Positions 3,066 through 61,608 of a stretch of DNA of 64,000 nucleotides are shown here, piece after piece (the first letter of the stretch is position 1; every line of letters starts with the position of its first letter). The translations under genes and the position numbers were made by a program. Source of the DNA: Promethearchaeia archaeon (GTDB lineage Archaea; Asgardarchaeota; Lokiarchaeia; Sigyniarchaeales; SOKP01); NCBI GenBank assembly GCA_049671145.1, contig JBATUM010000088.1, forward strand, positions 13,801-77,800, read 5' to 3'. The notes under the pieces were generated by a model. The model made no database searches. It saw nothing but the letters and a program-made list of their open reading frames with translations, and had not been told where the DNA came from.

Positions 3066-4841
3066 ATGGAAATGGAAAAGAAAAATGTAGCAATCATTAT
3101 TCTCGCCATAGCATTAATCGCCTCAGGTGTTGGCAACATTATCCTTGTTGTACAACCACAATTAGAACCTGAAGTGGGAATACGGACTATAAAATTCGGT
3201 AACATGTATATAGCCGAAGATATTGACCCTCAATATTCCTGGGATTCAGCTTCTTTTGATGCGGAGATGATGGTTTGGGAGCAATTATTCAAGAATAATT
3301 TGACTGCGCCTTCACTAGGAGTTAATATGGAAGCCTTTCCCTTGCTTACAACTGACATGGGTACTTACGATGTAACAGGAACAGAATTAACTGTTTACCT
3401 TAAACCAGGGATTAAGTTCCACGATGGTACCGATTGTGATGCTGCTGCTGTTGTATGGAGTTTTCAAAGATTATTATACCTGATGAATACCACATGGATG
3501 GGAGGTGCTCATCCTTGGGGCACTCTACCAGATACCTGCTTTTATAACATCCCAACTATTGTTGATTCGTTATATTATGTTGGAGGAGTTCCAATTATTT
3601 ATAATGTTGAAGCTATTACTACAACAGAAGTAAAGTTTACTTTAAGTCAACCTTATGGTGTTTTCCGCGCTTTATTAACATTCCCAGCATCATCTATCAT
3701 GTCTCCTACTTCTACACCACAACTAGATTATATTAATCCAAGTTTAGTTGATACTGGTATCTGTGTTGGAACTGGTCCTATGGAAATACTAAAACTTGAA
3801 ACTTATGAAGTAAGATTCAAAGCGTATGAAGATTATCATCGACCTCGAATAGGTTTTGATGTCTTAGTACATGTTAAAATCCAAGATGGTGATGCCAGAA
3901 ATATGGCAGTACTTTCTGGTGCTGTAGATATCGTCACAGATCCTTTCTTCTCATACTTCCCTACAATGATAGCAGAGCCAGAAGTTACTCTTTTAAATAC
4001 AGGTACAGTAAATTCTATTACCCAATACATGGGTATTAATACCAAATGGTATAACATAACATGGAGAAATGTATTTTCATACGCATTTAACTATACTGGA
4101 GTAATCGATGGTATAATGGAAGGTTATGGAGTGAGAATGAAAACGCCAGTACCACCAGGAATTAAGTACCATAACGACACATTCAATGTCCCAACCTATA
4201 ACCTTGCAACGGCTAGATCATATATGCAGGCCATGGGTTATGGACTTGGATTTACATTAGACTCACAATGGGAGGCAGCAACTTTTCTAACTGTCAACTA
4301 TACCTATAACACTGGCAATCTTGTCAGAGAAGGGGTATATGATATATTAGAAAAAGCCTTTGATAAAGTAGGAATAGTTGTAGAGGATGCGGGTATGACA
4401 TGGGAAGATTTCAAAGACAGATTATACGACAGAAGGGTATCAAGTGCCGGCTATAATGCCATGCATCTTTGGTGGGTCGGATGGATCCCTGACTATAACG
4501 ATCCTGAGAACTTTATTAACCCATTAATGCATCCGGATTCATCCAGTAACGCTGCTCAATTAAATGATCCTTATCTAAATGGATTAATGCAAGACGGAAT
4601 CGATACAACTGATGAACAAGCAAGAAAACACATTTATTGGGAGATTCAGCGCTATGTCGTTGAGGAGACCAGACAATGGCTATTCGGCTACCATGGAGAG
4701 AACTTTGATACCTTTGACATTAACCTTAAAGGATGGGTTGGCAATCCAATCGGATATAATGATTTCTACGGAACTTACTGGGACGGAGAGCTTAGAGCAG
4801 GCGAATATGGATATATGGAAGATGGATTTATCCCTACCTAA
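3066..4841 (+). CDS. ABC transporter substrate-binding protein, family 5 (peptide/nickel, OppA/DppA-like), membrane-anchored
   Basis: 591 aa. N-terminal hydrophobic anchor VAIIILAIALIASGVGNIIL. Family-5 SBP-like pattern (LKPGIKFHDGT, size about 590 aa). Lies in the same orientation as the downstream Dpp/Opp-type permease and ATPase genes. Confidence 0.8.
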   Translation: MEMEKKNVAIIILAIALIASGVGNIILVVQPQLEPEVGIRTIKFGNMYIAEDIDPQYSWDSASFDAEMMVWEQLFKNNLTAPSLGVNMEAFPLLTTDMGTYDVTGTELTVYLKPGIKFHDGTDCDAAAVVWSFQRLLYLMNTTWMGGAHPWGTLPDTCFYNIPTIVDSLYYVGGVPIIYNVEAITTTEVKFTLSQPYGVFRALLTFPASSIMSPTSTPQLDYINPSLVDTGICVGTGPMEILKLETYEVRFKAYEDYHRPRIGFDVLVHVKIQDGDARNMAVLSGAVDIVTDPFFSYFPTMIAEPEVTLLNTGTVNSITQYMGINTKWYNITWRNVFSYAFNYTGVIDGIMEGYGVRMKTPVPPGIKYHNDTFNVPTYNLATARSYMQAMGYGLGFTLDSQWEAATFLTVNYTYNTGNLVREGVYDILEKAFDKVGIVVEDAGMTWEDFKDRLYDRRVSSAGYNAMHLWWVGWIPDYNDPENFINPLMHPDSSSNAAQLNDPYLNGLMQDGIDTTDEQARKHIYWEIQRYVVEETRQWLFGYHGENFDTFDINLKGWVGNPIGYNDFYGTYWDGELRAGEYGYMEDGFIPT

Positions 4842-4845
4842 TCTA
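4835..4845 (+). repeat. 11-bp direct repeat TACCTAATCTA, left copy (spans the SBP stop codon)
   Basis: Exact 11-mer also present at 6670-6680. Both copies contain the TAA stop of the preceding ORF. Confidence 0.6.
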
Positions 4846-4886
4846 GCCGGACCCAGATATGCGTAATAAATCAAATTAAATTATTA

Positions 4887-4906
4887 TTTTTTTTTATTTT
4901 TTTTTT
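4887..4906 (+). terminator. oligo-T tract (T9-A-T10), candidate archaeal terminator after the SBP gene
   Basis: Two long T runs lie 46 nt past the stop codon. Archaeal RNAP terminates at oligo-T. Confidence 0.35.
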
Positions 4907-5052
4907 ATTATTGTTCTTATTCCCAAAGATTACAAAAGAAGGAACCAATAAAAACCAATTAAACTATTTAGAATTGGTGTTCAGATTTTTGAACAGAATA
5001 TATTAGGGATAGTTTTAAAAAGCAAGAAATCACAAAATTATTTAGTAAATAT

Positions 5053-5355
5053 ATGAAAGAGAAATCTAAATTAAATGTAGTTTTAACGATTTTTGGAATC
5101 GATTTTGCTTTATCACCAATATGTGGCAACAATATCAGTTTTAATGCTGGAGACAGCAATAGAGGTTTGGAATATAACGATTATATTAATTTAGATAACG
5201 AAATTTTAAAAATCTCAAGAGTTTCGGGGAAAATCCATCTCAATCATAGTTGGTTTACTACTAAGGCTGCCAGAATTTGCACGGATTCAGGCGCTTATTC
5301 TGATCCTAATGTTATTGAAGATTTGGTAATAGATGGTGGAGGTGGATTCTTATAA
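5053..5355 (+). pseudogene. Possible 5' remnant of a beta-helix/adhesin-like surface protein gene
   Basis: 100-aa ORF with an N-terminal hydrophobic segment. It ends in ...AARICTDSGAYSDPNVIEDLVIDGGGGFL*. This resembles the start of archaeal right-handed beta-helix surface proteins (G.G..SDPY.IE.L.ID), but the ORF stops where the helix repeats should begin. Confidence 0.3.
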
Positions 5356-5471
5356 ACTCAAGAGGTTTATTTAAAAGTCCCCCTCCTAAATTAAAATCTT
5401 TTAAAAACGATATTGCTCCGATTGGGTTTTATTTTGATTTATTTGCCCCTGATCTCTTTAAAATTCCTGTA

Positions 5472-14618: not shown

Positions 14619-15503
14619 TTAATATTTCTTTTTCGAAAGATAAGCAGAATATTCATGAATAATCTTTGTTGATTCCATTAAGGATAATTCTCCATTTAGT
14701 ACCCTTTTTGCTAAAGCTTCTAATGAAAGATTATATTCATTATTTTTTTCGAATTTAAAATCCTTCCATCTATCAACCTTTAATCTTTTTGTCTTAATTT
14801 GATTAAAGAAACTTTCATAATTAACGAGGTTTACTTCTATCCCTTCTCGCAAAGATATAATCAATGCGGCTATCTCATCTTTAGAGAATTTTGTCTCTCT
14901 TTTACTATAAATTTTTATTTTTGATGATTTATATTCATCAATTAAAAAAATTCTTATAAATCTGTCTTTATATTTGCTAAATATAAGTTTCACTAAATTA
15001 TGAGTTACTGAAATAACACCTATCCCAAATTTGAAGTTTAACCATAAATTTTCATTTTTACTCCTAAAATATGCTACATATTCTTCTAAAATATGTATAA
15101 GGTCTAACTCTTTGAAACAACAATAAGAATCTAAAAAAAAATCATCTAGAAAAATCATTAAACCTATTTTTTTACCAGGATCAATTGAAAATGTAAGAGA
15201 GGAATAAATCTCTTTATATCCAACTCTATAAGAAGATAGCACTTCTAAAAAATAATTTTCAAACTTTTCAGTATCTGAATAAGCCAAAATTATAGCTTTA
15301 TTGTTTATTCTTTCTAATTTATTAAGCTCTTTACTTGTAGTAAGGATTAATGAGGGAGTGTATGGTAACTTCTTTTCTATATTCAAAACTTTAAATTGGA
15401 TTTTTTTTTCTTTTAATGCCTTATTTAATCTAAAAAAAAAATTCAAATTTTCTGTGAATATATATAAAGGTAATTTTCTCAAATTAATTATATAAATTAA
15501 CAA
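14619..15503 (-). CDS. Hypothetical protein with a possible RNase H-fold (RuvC/YqgF-like) nuclease core
   Basis: 294 aa. Three acidic motifs occur in RuvC-like order: FSIDPGKKIGLMIF (D108), IFLIDEYKSS (D189/E190) and SKDEIAALIISL (D209/E210; compare RuvC DAADALAIA). The N-terminal ~100 aa are unassigned. The function call is inference only. Confidence 0.4.
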   Translation of the reverse strand: MLIYIINLRKLPLYIFTENLNFFFRLNKALKEKKIQFKVLNIEKKLPYTPSLILTTSKELNKLERINNKAIILAYSDTEKFENYFLEVLSSYRVGYKEIYSSLTFSIDPGKKIGLMIFLDDFFLDSYCCFKELDLIHILEEYVAYFRSKNENLWLNFKFGIGVISVTHNLVKLIFSKYKDRFIRIFLIDEYKSSKIKIYSKRETKFSKDEIAALIISLREGIEVNLVNYESFFNQIKTKRLKVDRWKDFKFEKNNEYNLSLEALAKRVLNGELSLMESTKIIHEYSAYLSKKKY

Positions 15504-15524
15504 TTGATTTAAAAATTTACAATA

Positions 15525-16217
15525 ATGGATTATTTAATAAAACCCTTCAACGAGTTATTCGACTATATTTTTCCGATTAAGGGAATTCTTTCTGTATGGG
15601 GTGATTTTGGAGTTGGAAAAACCACATTTTCACTACAAAAAGCTATAAGTTATGTATCAGGTAAAAATAAAATAATTTATATTTATACAAAACCTAATTT
15701 TCCTCTTGAAAAAATAAATAACTCTATCCAAAAATCAGTAAGAAATCCCTTAGATAAAATAATTTTTATAAAATCTTTAAATTTTGAAGATCTATATTAC
15801 TTAGTCTTCAATTTGGAATTTATATTACTAGATACTTATAAAAAACTTAATACCGTTATAGAATTAATAATTATTGATTCTATAACTGATTTATACCGAT
15901 TGGAGCTCAATAGAGAAAGCAAAGAGAAAAATTTTTTATTGAATTATAAGTTAAATCAGATTTTAGCAAATTTATTTTTTTTAAATAAGAAATATAGCAT
16001 TAATATTATAGTTGTAAATACTCAAACTAATATTAATCAAAATGGGCAGTTAATTGAAGTTCAAAGCGGTGGTAAGGTTATGGATTATTGGATTGACAGC
16101 TCGCTCAAAATTTTACGAACAAACGAATTAAACTGTCGGAGATTTGTTTTTAAAAAGAAGAATAATAAAAAAGCAATTGCATCTTTATCGACTCTCACAC
16201 AAGATGGATTTATTTAA
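15525..16217 (+). CDS. RadB-like RecA-superfamily ATPase
   Basis: 230 aa. Walker A GDFGVGKT, Walker B LIIIDSITDLYR, and a later NTQ...SGGKVMDYW segment. No N-terminal HhH domain. The start is 21 bp from the divergent 14619..15503 gene. Confidence 0.6.
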   Translation: MDYLIKPFNELFDYIFPIKGILSVWGDFGVGKTTFSLQKAISYVSGKNKIIYIYTKPNFPLEKINNSIQKSVRNPLDKIIFIKSLNFEDLYYLVFNLEFILLDTYKKLNTVIELIIIDSITDLYRLELNRESKEKNFLLNYKLNQILANLFFLNKKYSINIIVVNTQTNINQNGQLIEVQSGGKVMDYWIDSSLKILRTNELNCRRFVFKKKNNKKAIASLSTLTQDGFI

Positions 16218-19320: not shown

Positions 19321-19932
19321 TTATTCTAAAGTCTCTGATTGAATCTCCTCAAAATTCACTTTATAAACCTTTCCTTTTAATAAGGAGTAAATCCAATCAG
19401 TGAGCCAGGGACAAACTTTGGGATTGAATCGATCATTATTAGTTTCACTACACCTAGTGATGAATGGACAAATTAAACACGGTTGATATGAAAAAATATC
19501 TAAAATAAAATCTTTTTTACTTTCATCAATTTTTACATCTTTTACCTTTAACTCAATTTCTTCAATAGCAGATATGAATTTTGTCCAAGATGCATCAACT
19601 AATTCTCTTCTTACCTTAATTTTTGATTGTAAAGATAAAATATCTAAAATATCGTCCAATTCATTGCGATTTTTATTCGTATATTTCAGTAGATCATCAA
19701 AATATAAATTTCCTCTTTTATTTATAATGTCAAGAACAATTCTTTCTTCTTTTTTAAGATTCCTAGTAAAATGTTTTTTCCTTTCTTCTATTCTTTCTAT
19801 TCTTCTTTCAACCTCGGACTTATCAGAGTCTTCAGGGCTCACTAATCTCTCCTTTACTTTACATTTATGGCGAGATAAATATGCAAAGCTATTACCACAA
19901 TAAGGACAAACTTCTTTTTTTTTCTTTGCCAT
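19321..19932 (-). CDS. TFE-beta / RPC34-like winged-helix protein with C-terminal Cys cluster
   Basis: 203 aa. N-terminal CPYC...H.C knuckle, then a central winged-helix-like segment (IVLDIINKRGNLYFDDLLKYTNKNRNELDDILDILSLQSKI). The C-terminal CLICPFITRCSETNNDRFNPKVCPWLTDWI fits the C-x2-CP-x4-C...P-x2-C-x-[YW]-x2-W pattern of RPC34/TFE-beta Fe-S domains, as I recall it. Confidence 0.5.
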   Translation of the reverse strand: MAKKKKEVCPYCGNSFAYLSRHKCKVKERLVSPEDSDKSEVERRIERIEERKKHFTRNLKKEERIVLDIINKRGNLYFDDLLKYTNKNRNELDDILDILSLQSKIKVRRELVDASWTKFISAIEEIELKVKDVKIDESKKDFILDIFSYQPCLICPFITRCSETNNDRFNPKVCPWLTDWIYSLLKGKVYKVNFEEIQSETLE

Positions 19933-20085: not shown

Positions 20086-20880
20086 ATGAGTATTGACATT
20101 TCCAAATTTCTTAATAAAACAAATCAACACGTCGATGCTAATGCTATAATTAATGAACAAGGTAAAGATTTAAAGCAATCCAACATATCCTGTTCAGGGT
20201 CAAAACATTTAACTGAAATCTTGAATGGTGGATTTTATTCAGGAAAAAAATATTTAATATTTGGTGAAAATAGTACCGGGAAAACTCAATTATGTCACCA
20301 ATTATGCGTTGAAGCATATAAAAAATTTTCTAATTCTATTTTTATAGATACTGAAAATACCTTTCGACCTGAGAGAATTAAGGAACTGGCAGATACTCAA
20401 AAACTTAATTCAACTAAGGTATTAAAAAGTATTTTAGTATCAAAGATCATGAGTAATTCCATGTTACTCTTAAATTTGAAAAATATTAAAAACTTAATAA
20501 AACATAAAAATTTTAAAGTGATTTTGATAGATTCAATTAATAATTATTATCGACTTGAACAAGCTGATTCAAATATCAGCTATTTAAAAGCTAAAACAAC
20601 TTTTATAAAAATCTTAGAATACTTTAATAATCTTACTAATAAATACAAGTTAATAACTATAGCAACAGCTCAAATTACTCCCAATTTTGTTAATAACTCT
20701 ATAATTAATCACACTCCCGTAGGAATTCAATATCTTAGCCATTTCTTTTCAGAGTTCTTATATTTAAGCATTAAAGAAGATTCAACTGGACATGCCCATT
20801 TAGTTAATTCTTTTATCCTTCCCGAAAAAAAAGCATTATATAAAATAACTTCTGAAGGAATTCAAGATTATAAACTCTAA
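20086..20880 (+). CDS. RadA/Rad51-paralog ATPase (RadB-like, core domain only)
   Basis: 264 aa. Walker A GENSTGKTQLCHQL; IFIDTENTFRPERI (Rad51/RadA hallmark IDTE.TFRPER); Walker B VILIDSINNYYR. No N-terminal HhH domain. Confidence 0.7.
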   Translation: MSIDISKFLNKTNQHVDANAIINEQGKDLKQSNISCSGSKHLTEILNGGFYSGKKYLIFGENSTGKTQLCHQLCVEAYKKFSNSIFIDTENTFRPERIKELADTQKLNSTKVLKSILVSKIMSNSMLLLNLKNIKNLIKHKNFKVILIDSINNYYRLEQADSNISYLKAKTTFIKILEYFNNLTNKYKLITIATAQITPNFVNNSIINHTPVGIQYLSHFFSEFLYLSIKEDSTGHAHLVNSFILPEKKALYKITSEGIQDYKL

Positions 20881-49249: not shown

Positions 49250-49342
49250 GGCCCTTGACGGTTAGAGTGGTCTCTGACGCTGGGCTTCAAACCCAGTTAT
49301 CCTGCGGAGGGATAGGGGTTCGATTCCCCTCGAGGGCCGCCA
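49250..49342 (+). tRNA. tRNA-Sec (anticodon UCA at 49287-49289), 9/4 fold, CCA encoded
   Basis: 9-bp acceptor stem GGCCCTTGA/TCGAGGGCC (one G-U). 7-bp D stem GTTAGAG/CTCTGAC with 4-nt loop TGGT. 6-bp anticodon stem GCTGGG/CCCAGT, loop CTTCAAA. Long variable arm TATCC-TGCGGAG-GGATA. 4-bp T stem GGGG-TTCGATT-CCCC. Discriminator G followed by CCA. Confidence 0.9.
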
Positions 49343-61494: not shown

Positions 61495-61608
61495 GCAAGC
61501 GTAGCGTAGCCTGGTAACGCGCTGGCTTGGAGAGGAATAAAAACCAATTTCTACCCCCATTTAGCCAGTGTGGGCAACCACTCGGGGGTTCGAATCCCTC
61601 CGCTTGCG
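61495..61608 (+). tRNA. tRNA-Ser (anticodon GGA at 61529-61531) with a 30-nt intron at 37/38
   Basis: Acceptor GCAAGCG/CGCTTGC. D arm GCGT-AGCCTGGTA-ACGC. Anticodon stem CTGGC/GCCAG. The loop TTGGAG|A is interrupted by 61533-61562. Long variable arm TGTGGGCAACCACTC (class II). T arm GGGGG-TTCGAAT-CCCTC. Discriminator G. Mature length 84 nt. Confidence 0.7.

Follow-up and report, generated by a model that had tools for sequence, protein, structure and literature searches.

What does the gene that lies head-to-head with a RadB-like ATPase gene in a Promethearchaeia archaeon encode, and what might the two proteins do together? The locus lies in a 64,000-nucleotide stretch of contig JBATUM010000088.1 (GenBank assembly GCA_049671145.1, positions 13,801 to 77,800 of the forward strand), referred to here as the window. 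A first-pass annotation had proposed a RuvC/YqgF-fold nuclease divergently paired with a RadB-like RecA-family ATPase. Our analysis points to a nuclease of the YqgF/DUF460 type whose architecture is new and whose partnership with RadB is conserved; the two may form an undescribed two-protein DNA recombination or repair module. We consider a RadB-associated, structure-specific, metal-dependent DNA nuclease to be the most likely function of the protein, a prediction that we give about an even chance of being correct. Both open reading frames (ORFs) named in the annotation appear exactly so in the mechanical ORF list, and the genes are as follows, with positions counted within the window and lengths in amino acids (aa).

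14619..15503, minus strand: nuclease-candidate gene as the longest ORF (294 aa, TTG start, mechanical ORF list)
14619..15482, minus strand: nuclease-candidate gene with the start supported by homologues (287 aa, from the second TTG at 15482)
15525..16217, plus strand: RadB-like RecA-family ATPase gene (230 aa, ORF list)

Because most homologues of the nuclease candidate begin with MR(K)xPLYI, which aligns with the second TTG, the product is likely 287 aa long. On this alignment of N-termini, the most likely start is TTG 15482, which leaves a gap of 42 bp (15483-15524) before the RadB-like ATG in place of the 21 bp first reported. The shorter form also fits the spacing kept across species-level loci, where the gap measures 41-45 bp in 62 of 70 Promethearchaeota species loci. 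The nuclease gene is single-copy within the window, whose G+C content is ~24-35%. Residue numbers below follow the 294-aa ORF throughout.

A search of a 5.8-billion-protein collection returned 189 close homologues of the candidate at E<=1e-3, all from metagenome-assembled genomes (MAGs) labelled as Asgard and all unnamed or 'hypothetical', without any Pfam domain. A profile search of 1.84 billion cluster representatives (clusters at 50% identity) gave 236 representatives at E<=1e-3, many of them at 18-28% identity, and these too were all unnamed or 'hypothetical'. In some public sources, relatives are annotated as 'RNase H-fold protein (predicted Holliday junction resolvase)', and other labels read 'predicted RNase H-like nuclease (RuvC/YqgF family)'. 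Members of the family are found in Asgard archaea and in Bathyarchaeia, and scattered ones carry the label Hydrothermarchaeota or Thermoplasmata. Homologues at 79-85% identity carry conflicting MAG labels (Hodarchaeota, Hermodarchaeota, Odinarchaeota, Heimdallarchaeota, Thorarchaeota and Promethearchaeota), so the phylum labels of these MAGs are unreliable for taxonomic inference.

The AlphaFold2 model of the full protein, built on a 47-sequence alignment, reached a predicted local distance difference test score (pLDDT) of 85.2 and a predicted template modelling score (pTM) of 0.87. Three parts can be told apart in it: a small alpha/beta domain at the N-terminus, modelled over residues 13-95, the RNase H-like core, and helices at the C-terminus.

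15210..15482, minus strand: N-terminal alpha/beta domain, residues 8-98 (AlphaFold2 domain model)
14832..15206, minus strand: RNase H-like (YqgF-type) core, residues 100-224 (AlphaFold2, fold and profile matches)
14622..14831, minus strand: C-terminal extension, a low-confidence or disordered linker followed by helices 261-269 and 275-292 (AlphaFold2, alignment)

In the model, the core runs beta-beta-beta-alpha-beta-alpha-beta-alpha, which is the RNase H-like topology and the core of clade D. Its strands are beta-1 (102-108), beta-2 (113-119), beta-3 (122-129), beta-4 (154-160) and beta-5 (183-188), and its helices are alpha-A (132-149), alpha-B (164-177) and a C-terminal helix (208-217). The Foldseek neighbours of the full model were exclusively RNase H-like nucleases. 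The best match was a phage RuvC-like resolvase (E 8.6e-4, probability 0.99), and the others included RuvC (7xhj), RuvX (7ess), terminase nuclease domains, PIWI and the RuvC domain of Cas12a. Model and neighbours thus agree with the RNase H-fold call of the first-pass annotation. The top PDB match could suggest an Argonaute-like MID-PIWI protein, but this reading was rejected, the root-mean-square deviation being 15.7 Å and sequence support being absent.

The regions that flank the core set the architecture apart. The C-terminal extension carries a conserved L-x-G-E-L-S-L motif, and its helices are found in the Asgard forms and some others and are absent from the ~210-aa Bathyarchaeia forms. 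Modelled alone, the N-terminal domain is a four-stranded alpha/beta sandwich (pLDDT 84). Foldseek returned for it generic Rossmann-like, IIB-type and receiver-type matches alone (best E 0.12, TM score 0.63), the nearest PDB neighbours, none of them significant, being a mannitol IIB domain of the phosphotransferase system, receiver domains and N-domains of NAD kinases. The N-terminal ~100 aa, which had been left unassigned, therefore still have no closer description than a generic alpha/beta fold. Residues conserved family-wide in this domain are T17, an aromatic pair (FF/YY) and an L/I-T-T-x-x-E motif (T55, T56 and E59). A profile search with the domain found same-family fragments only, with no fusion or new domain context.

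To follow the candidate catalytic residues, we used an alignment of 72 diverse relatives at 18-85% identity, to which the counts below refer.

15180..15182, minus strand: codon of D108, first carboxylate candidate, in SIDPG, where beta-1 ends (codon verified)
14934..14936, minus strand: codon of E190, second carboxylate candidate, just after beta-5 (alignment)
14877..14879, minus strand: codon of D209, third catalytic candidate, within the motif K-D-E-I-A-A-L, at the N-terminal end of the C-terminal core helix (alignment)

The three acidic motifs on which the nuclease proposal had been based (SIDPGKKIG, FLIDEYKSS and SKDEIAALIISL) are all present. D108 and E190 are invariant (72/72 each), as are G110, G114, G160 and A213. 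Position 209 is D in 42 relatives, H in 29 and N in one, and it is an invariant Asp in 25 Bathyarchaeia forms. Two further residues that had been put forward for the active site did not hold up: position 189 is D in 44, N in 15, E in five and S in four relatives, and E210 is kept in 36 of the 72. Beyond the close clade neither D189 nor E210 is kept, which leaves D108, E190 and D/H209 as the likely catalytic residues. E190 lies within the motif (V/I)(D/N)E-x-x-(S/T)(S/T).

The position of this second carboxylate bears on which RNase H-like family is present. Its move from beta-4 to beta-5 is a hallmark of YqgF/RuvX and Tex, unlike RuvC (Majorek et al. 2014). In the window protein beta-4 reads FKFGIG, without an acidic residue, and the invariant E190 follows beta-5, so the arrangement is that of YqgF/Tex and not that of RuvC. 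RuvC shares the RNase H-like clade D fold, and there are structural matches to D. radiodurans RuvC and to phage RuvC-like resolvases; the RuvC model (PF02075) matched weakly in two of the 72 relatives, with E>0.01 (best 0.021). RuvC proper was rejected because beta-4 lacks the carboxylate, and the RuvC-type assignment made earlier is replaced by a YqgF/Tex/DUF460-type one. The first-pass annotation had also regarded a RuvC-fold nuclease coupled to RadB as unusual, Archaea normally using Hjc, but for RNase H-fold YqgF-like proteins an archaeal precedent exists in DUF460/COG2433, an archaea-only family that is RNase H-like and Tex-related (Majorek et al. 2014).

Profile comparisons placed the family in the same region of the RNase H-like superfamily. 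A broad family profile aligned along the entire core with the Tex YqgF domain (2oce, 3bzc; E 0.019), and a sub-profile did so with E 0.028. At E<=0.01, the Pfam matches among the 72 relatives were to DUF460 (20 members), RuvX (six), RRXRR (five) and Tex_YqgF (one), and the remaining listed families had one member each. All 25 Bathyarchaeia-type forms matched DUF460 and 11 of the 25 matched Tex_YqgF. The DUF460 matches were confined to the beta-1 to beta-3 region; their best E-value in batch scans was 6.9e-6, the relatives that could be read individually scored ~13-25 bits, short of the gathering cutoff (28 bits), and the window protein had no match. Precomputed protein-collection tables flag PF04312 on many Bathyarchaeia forms. 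The RuvX gathering score (29.2 bits) was exceeded by a single relative, P0228, at 29.9 bits, and the window protein had no match to this model either. Alignment with hhalign to the single E. coli YqgF sequence was weak (10% probability), in a register that pairs IDPG with FDFG and LIDEYKSS with LHDERLST.

With bacterial YqgF/RuvX (PF03652, COG0816) the protein shares the RNase H-like core, the G-(I/L/F)-D-x-G motif at beta-1, a second carboxylate after beta-5 within D-E-x-x-(S/T)-(S/T), aligning with DERLST of E. coli YqgF, and an Asp plus an invariant Ala in the C-terminal helix. YqgF/RuvX is a single domain of ~140 aa, whereas the 287-aa window protein adds an N-domain of ~95 aa and C-terminal helices of ~70 aa; unlike its bacterial counterparts, it is archaeal and paired with radB. 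DUF460/COG2433 (PF04312) is likewise archaeal, RNase H-like and Tex-related. DUF460 proteins are thought, from their average length, to hold further domains (Majorek et al.), whereas the family described here spans 205-310 aa and has an N-terminal domain of its own. The Tex/Spt6 YqgF-like domain (PF16921; 2oce, 3bzc) is the best sequence match of solved structure, with GxDPG, IGNG and V-x-E motifs that align, although E is only 0.02-0.03; Tex is multidomain, RNA-binding and without the third carboxylate, whereas the present family keeps D/H209. We conclude that, within the YqgF/RuvX-Tex-DUF460 group of RNase H-like nucleases, the 287-aa protein likely belongs to an archaeal branch that is uncharacterised. 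Several hundred 'hypothetical' proteins thereby gain a fold and a probable active site.

The divergent neighbour was examined in the same way. It matches Pfam Rad51 at 6e-8 over residues 19-168, and its best NCBIfam match is TIGR02237 recomb_radB (81 bits, E 1e-22), below the equivalog cutoff of 172.4 bits. It has a Walker A motif, GDFGVGKT, at residue 26, a Walker B-like LIIIDS and no N-terminal helix-hairpin-helix (HhH) domain. This is the architecture of RadB, a RecA/Rad51 core of ~210-240 aa with Walker A and B and without HhH, and we retain the description of the neighbour as RadB-like. In every partner tested across the family, the best NCBIfam model was again TIGR02237 radB, at 44-181 bits: the partner at L008 scored 96 bits, two Bathyarchaeia partners 138 and 146 bits, and that at L009 181 bits, which passes the equivalog cutoff.

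RadB has been implicated in homologous recombination as a mediator and has been described as restricted to Euryarchaeota. The RadB-like genes of Asgard archaea and Bathyarchaeia contradict this common statement. In Pyrococcus, RadB reportedly modulates the resolvase Hjc. What the present pair has in common with Pyrococcus RadB-Hjc and with the Haloferax RadB mediator is a RadB-type RecA paralogue associated with a structure-specific nuclease, here a predicted one. It differs from RadB-Hjc in that the nuclease has the RNase H fold and not the Hjc fold, in that the association is genomic (a divergent pair) and not biochemical, and in that its lineages are Asgard archaea and Bathyarchaeia in place of Euryarchaeota.

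A second RadA-core paralogue, also without an HhH domain, is encoded at 20086-20880 on the plus strand (264 aa, best NCBIfam model RadA, 124 bits) and is kept ~3.5 kb from the gene pair in most Loki-type loci. With this paralogue near the RadB-like gene, the lineage has two or more short RecA paralogues encoded close together.

Is the association with radB more than a local accident? A conserved linkage had been named as a check on the proposal, and we found it. The RadB-like gene is directly upstream and divergent in 71 of 72 Promethearchaeota species-representative genomes. A scan with a Bathyarchaeia-type profile found a divergent radB in 65 of 69 informative Bathyarchaeia-type metagenome loci, with a median gap of 82 bp. 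Deep branches keep the pair in other surroundings: at L008 (25% identity) the flanks differ, and at L009/L010 (22% identity) they differ as well, with CarS and RadA nearby. At L015 a diverged RadB-like partner has MutS-MutL upstream. Two Bathyarchaeia genomes also have the pair, one with NucS nearby (L090) and the other with Clp1, XPD, an HhH-GPD glycosylase and a topoisomerase nearby (L091). In a further locus, L014, the RadB-like and nuclease genes are co-directional with a 30-bp gap (3647-5406); this partner is strongly diverged, and its resemblance to RadB is left in the N-terminal P-loop region only. Because the pair persists in Bathyarchaeia and in deep Asgard branches with different flanks, the pairing of the nuclease and RadB-like genes is conserved beyond local synteny and across phyla. 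In the literature, no description of the family or of its pairing with radB was found, subscription journals being outside the scope of the search.

Two of these loci show further features of their own. L014 is a deep-branching relative from a MAG labelled Bathyarchaeota, yet its Trm1/FtsJ synteny is Asgard-like. At L091 (5001-6963) the nuclease gene overlaps a downstream gene for a Clp1-type polynucleotide kinase, and the XPD and HhH-GPD glycosylase genes adjoin.

What would such a pair do? That a D-E-D/H set is conserved on an RNase H-like core speaks for a metal-dependent nuclease, and the gene pair, kept across phyla, speaks for a role tied to RadB and, through RadB, to homologous recombination or the repair of forks. 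We infer a catalytic activity, a DNA substrate and a physical or functional interaction with RadB. In the mechanism that we propose, D108, E190 and D/H209 would bind divalent metal and the nuclease would cut nucleic acid, acting jointly with the RadB-like ATPase encoded head-to-head. The probable substrates would be branched DNA or single-strand/double-strand-junction DNA of the kinds formed when homologous recombination takes place or forks are repaired, for example flaps, D-loops and perhaps four-way junctions, and RadB might recruit or gate the nuclease. The genes for repair proteins near some loci (MutS-MutL at L015, NucS at L090, and XPD, HhH-GPD and Clp1 at L091) fit this reading.

Several observations weigh against this assignment. 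The structural matches are weak (TM scores ~0.2-0.4, best E near 1e-3), and searches of Pfam, NCBIfam and PDB sequences with the window protein and a close-clade profile gave nothing meaningful. The nuclease role of the whole family is predicted from sequence and a model, and it is from topology alone that D108, E190 and D/H209 are expected to cluster in three dimensions. Characterised YqgF/RuvX enzymes vary widely in their substrates, DrYqgF acting on RNA and MsRuvX on flaps and junctions, and RNA-modification genes are frequent neighbours of the pair. Adjacency to radB is lost in one of the 72 Promethearchaeota genomes (L084, with an unrelated dehydrogenase upstream), and the relatives labelled Hydrothermarchaeota and Thermoplasmata are not adjacent to radB. 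Flanking synteny is also kept within clades (FBPase, Trm1, FtsJ and acyltransferase in Loki-type loci, CarS in Bathyarchaeia); because the wider neighbourhood is thus syntenic within a clade, the linkage counts reflect phylogenetic inertia in part and are not decisive alone.

One alternative is that the protein is a true Holliday junction resolvase under RadB control, in which case it would dimerise, make paired cuts on four-way junctions, and replace or back up Hjc in these lineages. The fold belongs to the RuvC/YqgF clade, a RuvC-like resolvase is the closest structural match among viral proteins, the pairing with RadB is conserved, and the modulation of Hjc said to occur in Pyrococcus would provide a parallel. 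Nevertheless, the active-site layout is of the YqgF type and not the RuvC type. The characterised YqgF/RuvX proteins are monomeric, and two of them lack resolvase activity: DrYqgF is an Mn-dependent RNase without resolvase activity, and MsRuvX, a monomer, cuts flaps, splayed arms and single-strand/double-strand junctions but not Holliday junctions. Since characterised YqgF/RuvX enzymes mostly do not resolve junctions, we consider a resolvase role unlikely. An Hjc motif expression had no match in the 64-kb window, a result that says little about the whole genome.

The family could alternatively be an RNA-processing nuclease involved in rRNA or tRNA maturation, a role proposed for E. coli YqgF, in which case the adjacency of RadB would be mechanistically irrelevant. 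The RNase activity of DrYqgF fits this possibility, as does the closest sequence match of solved structure, the RNA-binding Tex. Genes for a TlyA-like S4-FtsJ methyltransferase, Trm1 and RrmJ are neighbours both in the window and in Loki-type loci, genes for NOG1 and a pseudouridine synthase lie downstream at L015, and in a Thermoplasmata relative (L012, 3194-5801) the nuclease gene overlaps the end of the gene for archaeosine tRNA-guanine transglycosylase. However, these RNA-modification neighbours vary by clade, whereas radB is the sole neighbour common to Asgard archaea and Bathyarchaeia, and the pair occurs once in an operon-like, co-directional arrangement (L014). For these reasons we regard an RNA-processing role as improbable.

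It is also conceivable, but quite improbable, that the protein is a degenerate, non-catalytic RNase H-like scaffold that binds nucleic acid or RadB, as has been argued for the YqgF domains of Tex/Spt6. Tex lacks the third carboxylate, and nuclease activity of Tex or YqgF had not been shown as of 2014 (Majorek et al. 2014). The alternation of D and H at position 209 would be consistent with such a loss, but two carboxylates are invariant over 72 divergent sequences, and conservation as strict as this would be unusual for a purely structural role. Alternation of D and H at the third site also occurs in active RNase H-like nucleases, which further counts against a scaffold.

We dismiss as extremely unlikely a nuclease and P-loop ATPase pair serving a mobile element or antiviral defence, because although ATPase and nuclease pairs are common in defence systems and a Bathyarchaeia RadB weakly matches PADLOC mad8 (E 1.4e-4), the nuclease has no PADLOC match, its gene is single-copy in the window and keeps the same chromosomal place between housekeeping genes in 71 of 72 species, and neither repeats nor an integrase was noticed close by. 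The single copy and fixed synteny also led us to reject a mobile element or transposase.

Returning to the favoured RadB-associated DNA nuclease, a stronger form of it can be put forward, in which RadB and the YqgF-like nuclease would constitute an obligate machine outside Euryarchaeota, the ATPase recognising or remodelling a recombination intermediate and thereby licensing its cleavage. This version is speculative, and we think that it probably does not hold. If it were true, it would represent a resolvase or flap nuclease gated by a recombinase paralogue, which is undescribed in any domain of life. Asgard archaea are the closest prokaryotic relatives of eukaryotes, and such a machine would thus offer a prokaryotic precedent, in the lineage nearest eukaryotes, for junction processing associated with Rad51 paralogues. 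The role of RadB has been open since its discovery, with indirect evidence for a mediator function; a nuclease locked to radB across two archaeal phyla offers a testable hypothesis, and the protein becomes a candidate enzyme for processing junctions or flaps in Asgard archaea.

The short spacer between the two genes has an unusual layout.

15483..15524, no strand assigned: divergent spacer of 42 bp, with two TATA-like boxes in crossed order (sequence)
~15488-15495: TATA-like box TTATATAA, ~30 bp upstream of the RadB-like ATG
~15508-15518: TATA-like box TTTAAAAATTT, ~30 bp upstream of the nuclease TTG

Because each TATA-like box is ~30 bp upstream of the start codon on its far side, the two promoters appear to be interdigitated. 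Such an arrangement would give very short leaders; the genome is very AT-rich, and the boxes are putative. The earlier statement that the two promoters must overlap, made for a 21-bp gap, stands for the putative promoters even with the longer spacer. The spacer's motifs as well as its length are conserved in 62 of the 70 Promethearchaeota loci, and among all 70 the nuclease starts with TTG in 68 and radB with ATG in 68. A conserved palindrome, AATTAAAAATTTTTAATT, lies by radB in many loci, and a TTTATATAA-type box lies by the nuclease gene. Together, these features suggest crossed divergent promoters and a nuclease whose initiation is deliberately weak or unusual. The crossed 42-bp region may drive mutually exclusive or coordinated transcription. 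If the obligate machine considered above were real, the crossed promoter, 41-45 bp long, and the almost universal TTG start of the nuclease would amount to a built-in device that sets the ratio of both proteins.

Other features of the window and its equivalents were noted. A 203-aa Cys-rich protein is encoded at 19321-19932 on the minus strand, with the RrmJ-like gene on one side and the second RadA paralogue on the other, and unannotated 203-aa genes occupy the equivalent position in L002 and L005. At a similar position, L014 has a 131-aa gene with a weak Pfam match to TFIIE-alpha. A selenocysteine tRNA gene is present at 49250-49338 on the plus strand (Rfam tRNA-Sec, 62 bits; ARAGORN anticodon TCA), and the organism therefore probably has a selenocysteine-decoding system. 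Finally, Rfam places a 114-nt tRNA at 61495-61608 on the plus strand; it is absent from the ARAGORN calls and is probably an intron-containing archaeal tRNA.

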